From positions 1-42,847 of the forward strand of contig MHMS01000022.1 of NCBI GenBank assembly GCA_001821615.1: DNA of 42,847 nt, given 5' to 3'. The DNA is from Candidatus Niyogibacteria bacterium RIFCSPLOWO2_12_FULL_41_13 (GTDB lineage: Bacteria; Patescibacteriota; Minisyncoccia; 2-12-FULL-41-13). Positions within the stretch are counted from its first letter, which is position 1. Every line of letters starts with the position of its first letter. The notes below the pieces were generated by a model. The model saw only the letters and a list, made by a program, of their open reading frames with translations. It had not been told where the DNA came from and made no database searches. The translations under genes were made by a program, and so were the position numbers. Below are positions 3,781 to 35,020 of the stretch, piece after piece.

Positions 3781-3856
3781 GGAGACATTGGTGTAGCAGT
3801 CAGCACTGGAACCTGTGGAGTTCCCAGCAGGGGTGCGAATCCCCTATGTCTCCCCA
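3781..3856 (+). tRNA. tRNA-His (anticodon GTG) with encoded G-1 and CCA
   Basis: Hand-folded cloverleaf. G-1 at 3781 pairs with discriminator C3853. Acceptor GAGACAT/ATGTCTC; D stem GTGT/GCAC; anticodon stem GGAAC/GTTCC with loop CTGTGGA; T stem AGGGG/CCCCT. The T loop is TGCGAAT (G at position 55), which is unusual. Confidence 0.85.
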
Positions 3857-25537: not shown

Positions 25538-25621
25538 CCGGGTGTAGCTTAATTAAGAAGTTCGCGCAAAGCGCCGGAAATATTTCGGAAAATGCGGGTT
25601 CAAATCCTGCCGCCCGGACCA
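25538..25621 (+). tRNA. Atypical tRNA-like gene (canonical acceptor and T arm plus CCA; non-canonical D/anticodon region; identity unresolved)
   Basis: Acceptor CCGGGTG/CGCCCGG (one G.U), discriminator A, encoded CCA. T arm GCGGG-TTCAAAT-CCTGC and a 4-nt variable region. The arm at the anticodon position (25573-25589) has loop AAATATT, and there is an extra GCGC-AAA-GCGC hairpin. An intrinsic terminator follows. Confidence 0.45.
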
Positions 25622-30435: not shown

Positions 30436-30804
30436 ATGAATAAAAAAGACCTTGATTATTTCAGCGCAAAATTAAAAGCGGAAAAAGAGCGGCTTGAAAA
30501 AGAACTCTCGGGACTCGCGACGAAAAATCCGGAAAATCCCGAAAACTGGATTCCTTCTTACCCGGATTTCAATCCCCAACTCGCCGATGAAAGCGAAAAA
30601 GCCGATGTCGTTGAAGAATTTGAAATAAAATACAGCGTTGAAACCGTCTTGGAGGAAAAACTAAACGAAGTCAAAGAAGCTCTTCAAAGAATCGCCAAAG
30701 GAACTTACGGCGTATGCGAAGAAGACAAAGAACCGATTTCAAGAGAACGGCTTGAAGCGAATCCCGCGGCAAAATACTGCCAAAAACACGCCCAGTTTAA
30801 ATAG
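30436..30804 (+). CDS. DksA/TraR-family-like protein (coiled coil plus degenerate C-terminal zinc finger)
   Basis: Coiled-coil N-terminal part and C-terminal GTYGVCEEDKEPISRERLEANPAAKYC, with only two of the four usual Cys. I start at the ATG (MNKKDL) rather than the upstream alternative start. Confidence 0.55.
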   Translation: MNKKDLDYFSAKLKAEKERLEKELSGLATKNPENPENWIPSYPDFNPQLADESEKADVVEEFEIKYSVETVLEEKLNEVKEALQRIAKGTYGVCEEDKEPISRERLEANPAAKYCQKHAQFK

Positions 30805-30840
30805 TCTGTATTTGCGGCGAATTATGTTGTAAAAAAACCT

Positions 30841-31195
30841 AGCGTTGTTTACATCTTCCGCGCTGTCCGGCAAATTCGCTAAGAAAACCCTCGCGCAGTC
30901 CGACCCGCTTCGCCGGAGCTTCAGCGAGGCGAGGCGGGCAGGGTACCCCAGCCCTGCCTCTTTCAAGAACCGGTTGTCGCTCGTTCCAGCGACTCGCGCA
31001 ACCTGCCCTCTCGGCGATTTTGTTCCCGCAAAGCGGGAAACCAAGCCAAAATCGCCTGCGAGAGCTTCTTTCAAGAGGCAGGACTGGGGTGAGCGAGGAC
31101 GAGCGGGAGCGCAAATTCCTCGCTGGGGAATTTGATAGCGTGTTTTCGCGCGAATTTGCCGGACAGAAGAAAATATGAAAGAATGTAAACAACGC
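30841..31195. ncRNA. G+C-rich element of about 355 nt built from nested helices (candidate large structured RNA, or a palindromic insertion); strand undetermined
   Basis: Terminal helices 30842-30854/31183-31195 (13 bp) and 30863-30879/31150-31166 (17 bp perfect), then 30946-30960/31075-31089, 31008-31021/31048-31064, an apical hairpin at 31022-31041 and three side hairpins. My hand count gives about 57% G+C, against A+T-rich flanks. Confidence 0.5.
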
Positions 31196-31212
31196 AGCTA
31201 ATTCTTACAAAT

Positions 31213-32733
31213 ATGTCTATCAAAATTTCCTCGGCTCAAATCGTCGGTTTGGAAGGAAAAATTATTGAGATAGAGGTTGATTTAACGCGGGGGCTTCCGG
31301 CTTTCTCCATCGTGGGCCTTCCCGATAAAGCGATTGAAGAATCAAAAGAAAGAATTTCTTCGGCGGTTAAAAACAGCGGTTTTAATCCTCCCCAGAGAAA
31401 AAACCAAAGAGTGACCGTTTCTTTGGCGCCGGCCGACCTTAAAAAGGAGGGGCCGGGTTTTGATTTGGGAATCGCCCTCGGATATCTTCTCGCCTCAAAA
31501 CAGCTCAACTTTAATGCCGATAAAAAATTATTTTTGGGAGAACTCGCTTTAAACGGCTCAATAAGAATAATCAGGGGAGCGCTGGCTTTGGCTCAAAGCG
31601 CCCTCAAAGCCGGTTTTGAAGAAATTTACCTGCCAAAAGGCAACGGCAAAGAAGCGGCTTTTATTGAAGGAATTAAGGTTTACGAAGCGGGCTCGTTGCT
31701 GGAAATTGCCAGCTGGTTTGAAGGAAAAATAAAACCCGAGCCGCTCCCGAAGCAAAAAATTCAAGAAAACGCTTCGGAATATTCCGTTGACCTTTCGGAT
31801 ATTCGCGGCCAAGAGCACGCGAAACGCGCTCTGGAAATAAGCGCGGCCGGAAGCCACAATCTTCTGATGGTTGGGCCCCCGGGCACGGGCAAAACAATGC
31901 TCGCCAAGGCGCTGCCCTCTTTGCTTCCGCCTCTTTCTTTTGAAGAAGCGCTGGAAGCGACCAACATCCATTCAATCGCCGGAACATTGGACAAGCCGCT
32001 TTTAACTTTCCGGCCCTTCCGCAATCCCCATCATACCGCTTCTTATATTTCAATTATCGGAGGAGGAACGATTCCAAGGCCCGGGGAAATAACAATGGCG
32101 CACCGCGGCGTTTTATTTCTGGACGAATTCCCGGAGTTTGACCGGAGAGTGATAGAGTCGTTGCGCCAGCCGATTGAAGACGGCGTAATCGCCATTTCCA
32201 GAGCAAAAGGCGTTATTGTTTTTCCGGCCCGAATAATTCTTGTCTGCGCGATGAATCCCTGTCCTTGCGGCAATCTCGGCTCTAAAAACAAATCTTGCCT
32301 GTGTCCGGCCTCCGCCATTTTCAAGTACCAAAGAAAAATATCGGGGCCTATCGCCGACCGGCTTGACCTTTTTGTTGAGGTCGGTCGGATTGAACACGAA
32401 GAACTTTCAAAGAAAAACTCCGCGCCCACTTCGGCGGAAAAACAAAAATTGATTTTAAAAGCGAGAGAAGTCCAAAAAGAACGTTTTAAAAACCGGAAAA
32501 TTTTAACCAATGCCGAAATGAGTAGCCGCGACTTGGAACAATTCGTTCCCCTGGACCGCGATTCCCAGCGCGCTTTAAATTTGGCGGCAAGCCGCATGGA
32601 CCTCTCTGCCCGCGCTTATCATCGAGTCATTAAAATAGCGAGGACAATCGCCGATTTGGAAAATTCAGAGAGCGTCCGCGAAAACCACATTGCCGAGGCC
32701 TTGCAATATCGGCCAAAACAAAGTTTGATTTAA
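31213..32733 (+). CDS. comM: YifB/ComM-family Mg-chelatase-like AAA+ ATPase
   Basis: Lon-like N-domain (GLPAFSIVGLPDKAIEESKERI), Walker A GPPGTGKTM, Walker B LFLDEFPEF, and the C-terminal RAYHRVIKIARTIADLE helix. Confidence 0.9.
   Translation: MSIKISSAQIVGLEGKIIEIEVDLTRGLPAFSIVGLPDKAIEESKERISSAVKNSGFNPPQRKNQRVTVSLAPADLKKEGPGFDLGIALGYLLASKQLNFNADKKLFLGELALNGSIRIIRGALALAQSALKAGFEEIYLPKGNGKEAAFIEGIKVYEAGSLLEIASWFEGKIKPEPLPKQKIQENASEYSVDLSDIRGQEHAKRALEISAAGSHNLLMVGPPGTGKTMLAKALPSLLPPLSFEEALEATNIHSIAGTLDKPLLTFRPFRNPHHTASYISIIGGGTIPRPGEITMAHRGVLFLDEFPEFDRRVIESLRQPIEDGVIAISRAKGVIVFPARIILVCAMNPCPCGNLGSKNKSCLCPASAIFKYQRKISGPIADRLDLFVEVGRIEHEELSKKNSAPTSAEKQKLILKAREVQKERFKNRKILTNAEMSSRDLEQFVPLDRDSQRALNLAASRMDLSARAYHRVIKIARTIADLENSESVRENHIAEALQYRPKQSLI
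32710..32733 (+). repeat. 24-bp direct-repeat core CGGCCAAAACAAAGTTTGATTTAA (copy at the functional comM end; attL-like)
   Basis: Identical to 34997-35020. Confidence 0.9.
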
Positions 32734-32770
32734 TATTATCGTATAGAATCATAATTAAAATATTTTGCTC

Positions 32771-32799
32771 TTGACATTTTCCTGCGGTTCTGATAATAT
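32771..32799 (+). promoter_or_regulatory. Near-consensus sigma70 promoter (TTGACA-17 nt-TAATAT, with TGn extended -10)
   Basis: TTGACA at 32771-32776, TG at 32791-32792, TAATAT at 32794-32799. Confidence 0.65.
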
Positions 32800-32936
32800 T
32801 TCGGGTAGAAAATCGCACCTTGAGTTACATTTCCACTTCAAAATAGAAAGCGCACAAAACCGAGCTATTGGGGCTCGATGATAGCACATTTTATTAGTTT
32901 TATTAGTTTAAACCCGAAAAAGAAAGAAAGGTGAAT

Positions 32937-33461
32937 ATGATGGGCGATAGAGAAGATTACAAAGAAGATTGCAAAAGAAAAGCTGCCTATGCGCTAGAAC
33001 AGATGAGAAGAGGTACGATTGGTTACCGATTTGCTCTTTGGTGTATTACAGAGAATCTTCGAGAGGGGAGGTGGTTCCTTTTTGAAATAGGAACCAGGCC
33101 GGCTGAACTTAATAAGCTCCGGATAGAAGACTGTAAAAAATCAGTTCAGAGCTGGATAGACGCGTTGCAATTTGGATTTTTTGCTGAACCGGACGAGGCT
33201 ATTAAATATATTAGAAATAGACTCGGGAAGAGCGGTCTTTCACTTTTTGATGCCGTCAACATCAATGAAGAAAAACTAGAAGAGTTCCGGGTTAAAGCTT
33301 GGGAGATGGTTGCTCGCAATGGAGTCGACATTTTTGAAAAACAAAAATGTCCTCTGACCGCTTGTAGTATTCTTAAGGCAGCCGAGAGAGGCGGATTTCC
33401 ACTTTCCAATATTGGTGTCGATGAAAAGGAACTTGAAAAAGTTCTATCCGAATACAGATAA
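32937..33461 (+). CDS. Orphan hypothetical protein (174 aa, predicted all-helical), cargo of cassette 1
   Basis: AAGGTGA Shine-Dalgarno at 32928-32934, then ATG ATG. I recognise no family. An intrinsic terminator follows. Confidence 0.6.
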   Translation: MMGDREDYKEDCKRKAAYALEQMRRGTIGYRFALWCITENLREGRWFLFEIGTRPAELNKLRIEDCKKSVQSWIDALQFGFFAEPDEAIKYIRNRLGKSGLSLFDAVNINEEKLEEFRVKAWEMVARNGVDIFEKQKCPLTACSILKAAERGGFPLSNIGVDEKELEKVLSEYR

Positions 33462-33506
33462 GACGCCAACAAAAAAGAGTCCAATAGTCCTCCAGCCGCA
33501 AATAAA

Positions 33507-33550
33507 GAACCTCTGAGAGAGCATGGCTTCGCCGAGGTTCTCTTTTTTTT
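33507..33550 (+). terminator. Intrinsic terminator of the cassette 1 ORF
   Basis: AGAACCTC ... GAGGTTCT 8-bp stem followed by CTTTTTTTT. Confidence 0.8.
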
Positions 33551-33705
33551 ATTTGAGCGGTGAATAAATAAAAGAATAAGGATTTTCTTAACCATAATAG
33601 TCGAGGCAAGGTTTTCCAGTCTCGGCTATTTTTATTTGTTAATTCACTCATTGCTTTTTCTAATCCTTCCTTTGCTAAACCTCTACTCTCTTCATCCTTC
33701 ATCCA

Positions 33706-33783
33706 ATGGAAAAATCACAAAACATCACTGAAGCCCATATAAGCGAGGCCTTGCAGTATCGGCCAAAGCAGAATTTGATTTAA
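33706..33783 (+). pseudogene. Orphan, diverged comM 3'-end fragment (last ~25 codons)
   Basis: Translates as MEKSQNITEAHISEALQYRPKQNLI*, against the comM C-terminus LENSESVRENHIAEALQYRPKQSLI*. Nucleotide similarity continues about 30 nt past the stop. Confidence 0.8.
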
Positions 33784-33889
33784 AATTATCATATAGAATC
33801 ATAATCAAGATATTTCTGAATAATGTTGATTTGTTTAGGACTTCTAGAAAATTAACTAAGTAGTCCAAAATTCAAATTGGAAATTTTGC

Positions 33890-33918
33890 TTGACAAAAAA
33901 TTATAAAAGAAGTATAAT
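33890..33918 (+). promoter_or_regulatory. Perfect consensus sigma70 promoter (TTGACA-17 nt-TATAAT)
   Basis: TTGACA at 33890-33895 and TATAAT at 33913-33918. Confidence 0.7.
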
Positions 33919-33955
33919 TAAAATAACAAAAGCTCTTTAATACCACTTGCAATTC

Positions 33956-34090
33956 GGTAGTCATAGCCAAAAAATACTCACTCATGGTGTTTTCTGGCTA
34001 TGACTACCATAGCGATGGTCCTTTGGCAATTCTGCCGCATGGCGCGGCCTCTGCTCAATGGGCAGAGAAAAATCCCGACAACAGTCGGAA
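33956..34090 (+). promoter_or_regulatory. Structured 5' leader of the cassette 2 ORF (candidate cis-regulatory RNA)
   Basis: 13-bp perfect stem GGTAGTCATAGCC/GGCTATGACTACC (33956-33968/33996-34008). Mutually exclusive pairings CTGCC/GGCAG and CTCTGC/GCAGAG lie within 34032-34067. Hairpin CCGAC-AACA-GTCGG lies just before the AGGAG. Confidence 0.5.
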
Positions 34091-34101
34091 AGGAGAGAAT
34101 C

Positions 34102-34713
34102 ATGAAGTACTCGAATCTGAACCTTAGAACGATTGAAGCGATAGTGAACAAGCTCGGCGGCATGGACGGCGTGAAGTGTTTTCTGTCAGGCGAGCTTACG
34201 GTTAAGAAGAAGGAGAGAGAATGCATCTTCGCTGTCTGGAAGACCATTAAGCTCGGCACTGGGCTGAAGACCGCCGATAACTTCCGCCGCGCACTCAAAG
34301 CAGAAGGCAATATCATCGGCGACTGGGGGGCGAGCAAGATTCTCGGCAGGAAGGAGTTCACCGTGGCAAAGGAGGAAACCGAAGTGGACCTCGTTGCGGT
34401 GTCTATTGTTGATGATCTCGGCTTCGTGAACGGCGCCACACAGAAGGAGATCTATGAGAAAGCTTTCAAACTTGGTCTGAAGCTTTGCCCCGCCGAAGTC
34501 GGTCCCCAGCTACGATTGCAGTTTAAGAATCAGCCCAAGGGCGAGTGGCTTCTTATTGGTATGGAACCTATCTATGACTCGGATGGCGACCCTTACGTGT
34601 TCTACGTTGGACGCGGCCGTGATGGTCTGTGGTTGGACGGCTATACCGGCGACCCCTACGACTACTGTAACAGCGGCGATAGCTGTTGGGTGTTCGTCCG
34701 TCCTCGCAAGTAG
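34102..34713 (+). CDS. Orphan hypothetical protein (203 aa), G+C-rich, cargo of cassette 2
   Basis: AGGAG lies 6 nt upstream of the ATG at 34102, so the longer ORF from 34000 would run through the leader stem. Two sampled 60-nt lines are about 55% G+C with GC3-rich codons. I recognise no family. Confidence 0.65.
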   Translation: MKYSNLNLRTIEAIVNKLGGMDGVKCFLSGELTVKKKERECIFAVWKTIKLGTGLKTADNFRRALKAEGNIIGDWGASKILGRKEFTVAKEETEVDLVAVSIVDDLGFVNGATQKEIYEKAFKLGLKLCPAEVGPQLRLQFKNQPKGEWLLIGMEPIYDSDGDPYVFYVGRGRDGLWLDGYTGDPYDYCNSGDSCWVFVRPRK

Positions 34714-34769
34714 CACTTAGGACTTTGTTTCTTTGATCTCCTGACCTTTGAAACTGAGTCCTTTGACCT

Positions 34770-34811
34770 CCCCGCATCTTGGCTTCGGCCTTGGCGCGGG
34801 GATTTTCTTTT
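34770..34811 (+). terminator. Intrinsic terminator of the cassette 2 ORF
   Basis: CCCCGC ... GCGGGG stem enclosing GGC-TTCG-GCC, followed by ATTTTCTTTT. Confidence 0.75.
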
Positions 34812-34996
34812 AATAGAATAAAAACGACAGTAGGTGAATATGCGGAAAATCATGGTTTTCCGCTACCGAATCCAGTAGACAAGGAATAGTTTGCCAACTT
34901 ATGGAGATTTAACCTCTATAGTTAATTTTTTGATAATTTGCGGGGTTTACAATAATCCGACTTTTTTTATCCTAGTTTGTTTATAAACCTTACAAT

Positions 34997-35020
34997 CGGC
35001 CAAAACAAAGTTTGATTTAA
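34997..35020 (+). repeat. 24-bp direct-repeat core, orphan copy (attR-like; presumed ancestral comM end)
   Basis: Identical to 32710-32733. Its TAA (35018-35020) overlaps the stop (35017-35019) of the convergent gene. Confidence 0.9.

Follow-up and report, generated by a model that had tools for sequence, protein, structure and literature searches.

A G+C-rich palindromic insertion at the comM start codon of a Candidatus Niyogibacteria bacterium: a probable miniature transposable element with a conserved three-way-junction fold

The comM locus and its insertion

The contig MHMS01000022.1 (GenBank assembly GCA_001821615.1) of Candidatus Niyogibacteria bacterium RIFCSPLOWO2_12_FULL_41_13, whose positions 1 to 42,847 were analysed and are referred to here as the window, carries a G+C-rich palindromic insertion of 384 bp (30827-31210) between a dksA-like gene and comM. 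The upstream neighbour (30436..30804, plus strand) codes for a DksA/TraR-type zinc-finger protein of 122 aa (Pfam zf-dskA_traR, 27 bits, E 4.4e-6) and was called in L001-L004, L numbers being used here for the sequences compared. The downstream neighbour, comM/yifB (31213..32733, plus strand, 506 aa), codes for ChlI, Mg_chelatase and AAA_5 domains, and both genes lie outside the element. We consider it highly probable that the element is a MITE (miniature inverted-repeat transposable element) of an IS481-like insertion sequence (IS), sitting on the comM start codon, and that its interior fold has been kept by selection.

A first-pass annotation, made from the letters alone, had described positions 30841-31195 as an island of about 57% G+C in an A+T-rich contig, immediately upstream of comM. 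Both statements hold, with a G+C content of 0.572 in this region versus 0.399 in the whole window and a comM start at 31213; the 355-nt stretch of highest G+C content in the 42.8 kb begins at 30812. The nested helices, apical hairpin and three side hairpins that it had listed were recovered in minimum-energy folds, and the helices also by a repeat finder. The repeat finder returned a 17-bp helix with its 5' arm at 30863..30879 and its 3' arm at 31150..31166 (17/17 complementary, 100%), a helix of 25 nt at 30945-30969/31066-31090 (88% complementary) and another at 31013-31022/31047-31056 (10/10), and it extended the outer arms to 28 nt (30827-30854/31183-31210, 75%). The region folded with -189.5 kcal/mol on the plus strand (z -11.6) and with -195.0 kcal/mol on the minus strand (z -10.5), none of 100 shuffles folding as well in either case, and the fold calculated with DNA parameters was equally exceptional (z -11.9). 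The structured region is therefore real, its boundaries lie further out than first drawn, at 30827 and 31210, and the 13-bp helix taken as the outermost one exists as only the inner part of longer terminal repeats.

These terminal inverted repeats measure 28 bp (TTGTAAGAATT-N4-GCGTTGTTTACAT). The left one (TTGTAAAAAAACCTAGCGTTGTTTACAT, 30827..30854, plus strand) has 3 mismatches to the consensus of the family described below, and the right one, which reads TTGTAAGAATTAGCTGCGTTGTTTACAT on the minus strand (31183..31210), has none. In the left repeat of this copy only, GAATT has changed to AAAAA, so that a T7 run is created on the minus strand; in no other element does such a run follow the structure. 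The element is flanked by a target-site duplication, TTATG on the left (30822..30826) and ATATG on the right (31211..31215), which are identical at 4/5 positions. The comM start codon (31213-31215) lies inside the right copy, and the element ends 2 nt before this ATG.

A search with the ComM protein led to the relatives L090 (86% identical) and L091/L092 (75%), in which the gene order amidohydrolase-pheS-pheT-dksA-like-comM is kept. In both of these closest relatives the orthologous junction is empty: the gap between the dksA-like gene and comM is 5 nt in L090 and 19 nt in L091/L092, versus 408 nt in the window. The empty site of L090, AATTTATGTCT, includes the target TTATG, as in the left flank of the element. 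Since the junction reads ...TAAAATTTATGTCT in L090, and ...AATTATG followed by the element (TTGTAA...TTACAA) and by ATATGTCT in the window, the duplicated target is the 5-bp TTATG that overlaps the start codon of comM, and the present ATG of comM is supplied by the right-hand copy of the duplication. The insertion explains the 408-nt gap between genes that are nearly contiguous in relatives. By moving comM this far from the upstream dksA-like gene, it would have left comM to be transcribed either through the element or from within it. For annotation this means that the G+C-rich island is to be treated as a mobile-element insertion, and neither as an RNA gene nor as a regulator of comM.

A second context was found in L005, a contig of the same population, whose comM is identical to that of the window. 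On the 5' side of 30827, L005 runs into fusA and a small open reading frame (ORF) instead of dksA, and homology with the window breaks exactly at 30827, the first base of the left repeat. The element of L005 is about 93% identical to that of the window in its left half and 100% identical in its right half. L173, a contig of a related genome (88% nucleotide identity), stops exactly at the junction between fusA and the element. The stretches concerned are 1-1632 in L005 and 2780-3048 in L173. The element also occurs in the ENA data sets ERZ4903055, ERZ28563660 and ERZ4903125 and in the JGI data sets 3300002502 and 3300002105. A search for a full second copy by way of EF-G retrieved only a contig that ends at this junction. 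In the simplest reading, these data suggest a second copy of the MITE or of the IS downstream of fusA, and L005 would then have arisen either when copies recombined or when the assembly was joined across the repeat. Repeats of this kind would explain assembly breaks and chimeras in metagenome bins of the lineage.

An IS481-like family with the same ends

Metagenome contigs were scanned with the end pattern TTGTAA-N9-GCGTTGTTYACAT. This yielded 79 loci with 63 distinct outer flanks and the family consensus end TTGTAAGA(A/T)(A/T)T-N4-GCGTTGTTTACAT, and at most of the loci a second, inverted copy of the end was present when mismatches were allowed. The spacing of the paired ends was about 900-930 bp in full elements and 90-490 bp in dozens of derivatives that lack a transposase. 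Around both size classes perfect 5-bp A+T-rich duplications were found (TTAAT, CTAAA, TTCAT, TTAAA, CTAAG, TTTAG), and the target consensus, obtained from the 63 distinct ends, was nTWAn.

The elements of about 900 bp with repeats of the window type (L097, L103, L108, L118, L136, L141, L150 and L151) encode one protein of 268 aa, a DDE transposase with helix-turn-helix (HTH), rve and rve_3 domains that passed the Pfam cut-offs. Its best NCBIfam match was to the IS481 family (transpos_IS481) with 189.5 bits and an E value of 8.5e-56, IS3 reaching 75. Members of the IS481 family have TGT...ACA termini and produce duplications of 2-15 bp (PMC10045372, citing ISfinder), a range that includes the 5-bp duplication observed here. 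The window element encodes no transposase, and its interior has no similarity to that of the partner IS; judged by this comparison, it is not a remnant of the transposase gene. By its terminal repeats, duplication, small size, lack of a transposase gene, empty sites and partner IS with the same ends, the 384-bp element is, on these sequence features, a MITE of an IS481-like IS. Movement would be possible only with help in trans, the 268-aa DDE transposase of a full copy acting on the ends of the MITE.

The palindromic mobile insertion that the first-pass annotation had offered as an alternative to a novel large non-coding RNA (ncRNA) is thus borne out by the terminal repeats, the duplication, the empty sites, the partner IS and the sister elements, dozens of them, at different sites. 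Copies that are dispersed and flanked by target-site duplications, which had been named as a sign of such an element instead of an RNA gene, were found at the level of the family with its 63 distinct flanks; in the lineage itself, there is one copy in the window and a variant beside fusA in L005.

Several observations weigh against this assignment. The 189.5 bits of the transposase are below the curated NCBIfam cut-off of 224 for IS481, and the ends begin with TTGT, versus TGT in IS481-type elements (PMC10045372). Since the element ends read TTGTAAG...CTTACAA, the TGT/ACA is offset by one base. In addition, the duplication in the window is imperfect (4/5), with a T at position 4 where the target consensus has an A. 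Finally, no transposase gene or second copy of the element was found within the 42.8-kb window, and mobility in the source genome would rest on L005/L173 and on the behaviour of the family.

The partner IS is unusually compact (about 900 bp; L097 1172-2096 and seven other full copies). Its transposase stop codon lies within the right terminal repeat (..CTGTAAACAACGC), a hairpin just 5' of where translation starts could mask the ribosome-binding site, and the repeats are in effect about 40 bp long (..ACAT TTTCGGGAT). Units made of little more than two or three abutting terminal repeats (91-155 bp), or of overlapping repeats, were seen in L159 (2043-2114), L124 (3733-3823) and L172 (8693-8847), and these may be minimal MITEs or end-to-end IS junctions. 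Literature searches found no published description of the IS481-like family or its MITEs. As far as these searches show, the family is undescribed, and it is widespread in uncultivated bacteria.

A conserved three-way-junction core

Diverged homologues of the interior of the window element were found in L110 (also L163/L166), L109 and L132. L110 is about 72-77% identical to the window over the ends that can be aligned by blastn, and it keeps the whole nested architecture (z -10). The second helix reads CTGTCCGGCAAATTCGC / GCGAATTTGCCGGACAG in the window and ATCCCGCAGGCAATAAGC / GCTTATTGCCTGCGGGAT in L110, the closing helix of the core described below CCCCAGCCCTGCCTCTT / AAGAGGCAGGACTGGGG and CCCCAAGGGCTTTCTC / GAGAAAGCCCTTGGGG, and the inner helix GCGATTTTG / CAAAATCGC and GCCGAAAAA / TTTTTCGGC, respectively. 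The counterpart of the 17-bp helix in L132 is CGTCGGCCATTCG/CGAATGGCCGACG, and in both L110 and L132 this helix differs in sequence while its pairing is complete.

The central part of the element, a three-way-junction core of about 140 nt (30946..31089, tentatively assigned to the minus strand), is also common to a further set of MITEs (L148/L161, L144, L096, L130/L155, L137/L152/L158, L134 and L099/L113). It is closed by a helix at 30946-30962/31073-31089, followed by a 2x2 internal loop, TC/TC on the plus strand and GA/GA on the minus strand, and by the 5-bp helix AGAAC/GTTCT (30965-30969/31066-31070). From the junction emerge a hairpin (30972-31003) with the 7-nt loop motif TCCAGCG at 30985-30991 and an inner helix (31008-31022/31047-31064) with a CTG bulge, which leads to an apical hairpin (31023-31039) and a 7-nt bulge ACCAAGC (31040-31046). 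A covariance model of this core, R1, was built from six sister elements with the window left out. It matched the window at 30947-31088 with 82.9 bits (E 2e-17) and recovered at least 14 distinct real members, one of them in L112.

In the core alignment pairing holds in 92.4% of the cells, versus 61% in shuffles and 38-50% when the partners are slid, and double-sided changes occur in 49 of the 54 pairs. The covariation score was 0.543, versus 0.142 in shuffles and at most 0.122 with partners slid. Since it was the model that fitted the alignment, the structure is favoured; nonetheless, the pairing is plain to see in the unaligned sequences. The helices change completely, yet the ACCAAGC bulge, the TCCAGCG loop, the TC/TC mismatch, the CTG bulge and the junction nucleotides are conserved. 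These compensatory changes, together with the conserved loops, bulges and internal-loop mismatch, indicate that the fold is under selection as a single strand, and the covariation pattern would equally fit a folded DNA strand. In the MITEs, and in related elements of many metagenomes, a junction fold is conserved and covaries. The autonomous IS has no such core, and its transposase is therefore independent of it.

Outside the core, the motif GAAAAC (30883..30888) pairs with GTTTTC at 31142-31147 in the DNA-parameter fold, and it lies within a block that is conserved in the alignment with L110, L109 and L132. The side hairpin at 30904..30938 is confined to the lineage of the window and L005 and corresponds to an alignment gap in L110, L109 and L132. 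Another side hairpin, GCAAATTCC-TCGCTGG-GGAATTTG (31111..31134), belongs to the block best conserved with L110 and L132 (86-94% identity by blastn), and its stem changes in a compensatory manner, reading AAATTCC/GGAATTT, AAATTTC/GAAATTT or AATTTCC/GGAAATT in the alignment. Its loop is complementary to the TCCAGCG motif of the core, and a loop-loop contact between them is possible.

Several further forms of the core were observed. A diverged copy, scoring 51.6 bits, was found between genes in L112 (8111-8245); it has no recognisable terminal repeats and is either a decayed MITE or a stand-alone module. Reduced junctions with a tetraloop-capped inner helix and no ACCAAGC bulge occur in L021 (4568-4712 and 6430-6570) and L030 (1319-1417). 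These two contigs and L061 are among the weak, reduced matches of the core model at comM loci, inside palindromic units with other ends. As these ends are not IS481-like, the module may occur in more than one small palindromic family. Longer sister MITEs contain further recurring modules (L096 3475-3803, L099 481-910, L134 857-1343, L137 318-727 and L144 7402-7750), one being an end-proximal block CAGCAGAAAATCTTTTCCCGCCAGC with its complement and another a second domain with the flanks ..ACGGAAGCGCAG..hairpin..CGTGAGCGG.., and they appear to be mosaics of structured modules.

No known RNA family was recovered from the element. At gathering thresholds, Rfam 15 reported two tRNAs elsewhere in the window (3782-3853 and 25538-25618) and nothing in the element. 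With E values up to 10, the best match in the region was mir-3173 with 22 bits versus a gathering threshold of 84, a generic hairpin match. At 14 sister loci the Rfam scan detected only tRNAs and one RNase P elsewhere, and nothing in the element of L148. Four candidates had been considered by eye: a T-box antiterminator, from a UGGU beside a hairpin, was rejected as the Rfam scans gave no T-box match; a hammerhead, as the junction strands are too short; a tRNA-like arm, as its 7-nt loop lacks U33; and an integron attC, as the R-box pattern does not fit. In viral contigs a 17-mer search gave no match and the terminal-repeat pattern hit one unrelated locus, with no family members found; matches to the helix motif and the core motif in these contigs are read as chance, since the core model does not confirm them.

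Strand, function and relation to known elements

Four lines of evidence lean towards an RNA of the minus strand of the window and are suggestive only. Among the non-Watson-Crick cells of the core, 30 are A.C or C.A, which would be G.U on the opposite strand, versus 10 G.U, and when near-identical copies were compared (the window with L003 and L005, L096 with L130, and L137 with L152) six of seven single substitutions produced a G.U solely when read in the minus orientation, the seventh solely in the plus orientation. The conserved TC/TC loop is GA/GA on the minus strand, and tandem G.A motifs are stable in RNA. In 8 of 10 elements the energy of folding was lower for the minus orientation. The right end with the next base reads TTGTAA-N17-TACATT and faces inward, the T after the repeat being present in 45 of the 63 distinct ends, and we infer from this sequence a weak sigma-70-like promoter. 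On the other side of the balance, the promoter-like end agrees with the consensus at 8 of 12 positions and was not called by a consensus promoter scan, and the strand counts are not phylogenetically independent. Wobble pairs are scarce (about 1-4% of the cells), as expected if both DNA strands pair, and relative to the flanking genes the core is co-directional in 8 cases and opposite in 4, showing no orientation bias. Weighing these patterns, we slightly favour a role of the fold at the RNA level and, if it is RNA, regard the minus strand as the fairly probable one.

Our best guess is that the single-stranded form would be a minus-strand transcript begun at the inward-facing, promoter-like right end, in which the conserved junction and loops would be recognised by a partner, a protein or an RNA, instead of acting simply as hairpins for stability. 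Antisense regulation of the transposase mRNA was dropped: eight full IS copies contained neither the conserved motifs of loop and bulge nor the complements of these, apart from one isolated ACCAAGC in L103, and no complementarity of the loops to the transposase mRNA was found. A bolder reading, which we rate as unlikely at present, would see in the core and its peripheral helices a class of structured RNA that is new and mobile, a cargo of IS481-type MITEs across Patescibacteria-like genomes that occasionally occurs also without transposon ends and is transcribed from the inward-facing end; its loops CGCUGGA and GCUUGGU together with the GA/GA motif would then bind the transposase, a host protein or another RNA. 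If it is true that the fold works as RNA, these organisms, whose genomes are very small, would harbour a structured RNA borne by a transposon.

The most serious alternative, to which we give a minor share of the probability, is that the MITE has no specific function of its fold and that the complementarity is a by-product of palindromic DNA, the arms being kept alike through hairpin or cruciform extrusion with mismatch correction or through short template switches in replication; in a variant, nothing more would be selected than a hairpin of generic stability, by which neighbouring transcripts are terminated or stabilised. The comparable folding of both strands and the equally exceptional DNA-parameter fold fit such an origin, as do the overwhelmingly Watson-Crick pairs, with wobble in only 10 + 30 of 824 cells on one strand or the other. 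Moreover, the outer helices are unrelated between members, as if they had been swapped instead of having evolved gradually, and stable folds are general in bacterial MITEs and REPINs, compensatory changes being known from REPINs (PMC3184786, PMC3116915). However, homogenisation of the arms should erase asymmetries, and ACCAAGC, TCCAGCG, TC/TC, the CTG bulge and the three-way junction persist. The maintenance of unpaired motifs while the helices change argues against mere homogenisation and for recognition of a folded single strand. Likewise, the 3:1 excess of A.C over G.U is unexpected from a strand-blind process, and a generic terminator or stabiliser needs no conserved junction and should show an orientation bias, which is absent.

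Far less probable is a structured RNA resident at the locus. It would be a long 5' leader of comM or a comM regulator of the riboswitch kind, or else a chromosomal ncRNA gene of its own whose palindromic look is incidental. The position directly upstream of comM, 2 nt before the ATG, the strong fold and the high G+C content within an A+T-rich genome had spoken for it, and the core copy in the intergenic region of L112, without recognisable terminal repeats, is in line with it. On the contrary, the two closest relatives with this synteny lack the element at the junction, and no blastn homologue was found at 80 further comM loci of GTDB species representatives; the core model gave weak, reduced matches in 4 of these 80 loci, none at the junction between a dksA-like gene and comM. 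The element is bounded by transposon ends and a target duplication, it adjoins fusA in L005, and its sister elements lie beside unrelated genes in both orientations. What survives of the novel large ncRNA first proposed is therefore the fold, which is explained neither by chance nor by composition alone and whose core and peripheral helices are kept by compensatory changes with unpaired motifs conserved; the RNA gene or comM leader bound to this locus does not survive.

That the region codes for protein, in a 117-aa ORF on the minus strand or a 96-aa ORF on the plus strand, is next to impossible: frames are open in three phases and one gene caller called the 117-aa ORF in L003, but this ORF, used as a protein probe for hidden DNA homologues, matches itself alone among 5.8 billion proteins, it was uncalled in four other assemblies of the locus, indels between sister elements are not multiples of three, and the translation is of low complexity and rich in arginine and serine, in agreement with the earlier view that the overlapping ORFs reflect base composition.

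On the 3' side of comM, a stretch of about 2.28 kb (32734-35011) is missing from L090, where comM and a convergent Wzy_C gene overlap. On either side of it stands a 26-bp direct repeat, exact in sequence, of the 3' end of comM (32708-32733 and 34995-35020; window 32657-35020). The third copy (33758-33783) is 88% identical and forms part of a 109-nt repeat with an identity of 80%. Two tandem cassettes with one ORF each and no Pfam match (32931-33461 and 34000-34713) make up this insertion, which looks like a site-specific integration at the comM 3' end; no integrase was seen in it.

The MITE in front of comM can be compared with several known systems. Large ncRNAs and transposon guide RNAs (GOLLD, ROOL, HEARO/omega RNA, OLE, raiA, RNase P, tmRNA and 6S) are alike in size, in G+C-rich nested helices and in covariation, but the Rfam 15 scan matched none of these classes to the element, and no IscB, TnpB or IS110-type gene lies nearby. 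As in the IS481 family, the partner IS has short terminal repeats and codes for one DDE transposase, in which an HTH at the N-terminus is joined to rve/rve_3 domains; it differs in being very compact (about 900 bp, a protein of 268 aa), in its score below the family cut-off, in its 5-bp duplications (most members produce 6 bp) and in its ends, TTGT instead of TGT. REPINs resemble the window element as dispersed units without autonomy that form hairpins, and compensatory changes are seen in these (PMC3116915). They are mobilised by RAYT (HUH/Y1) transposases on single strands and have neither terminal inverted repeats nor target duplications, whereas the ends and duplications of the window element indicate, as far as sequence can, transposition of the DDE type.

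A further likeness is found in bcr1 of the Bacillus cereus group, a mobile repeat of about 155 bp with 5-bp direct repeats that is transcribed and whose multi-stem fold is maintained at the RNA level by compensatory changes (PMC3184786, citing Klevan et al. 2007). The mobility, the 5-bp direct repeats and the compensatory changes are shared with the window element. In contrast, bcr1 is unrelated in sequence and host, it forms two independent stem-loops instead of a nested junction, and PMC3184786 describes for it no autonomous partner whose ends match; its transcription is reported, and that of the window element is hypothetical.

Bacterial MITEs such as Correia/NEMIS in Neisseria, Nezha in cyanobacteria, Chunjie in Geobacter and the 288-bp IMU with its 5-bp duplication are, like the window element, short and transposase-less. 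They also share with it terminal repeats that match those of an IS, a short target duplication, a very stable predicted fold, empty and filled sites among relatives and insertion beside gene starts or across them (PMC3184786). Since stable folds in MITEs and compensatory changes in bcr1 and REPINs were already known (PMC3184786, PMC3116915), the kind of element is not new. Compared with most bacterial MITEs, the window element is larger (384 bp) and has a G+C-rich interior in an A+T-rich genome. Instead of a simple long hairpin it forms a multi-branched structure around a conserved three-way-junction module, this module is common to sister MITEs of very different length and outer sequence, and the partner is an IS481-like IS.

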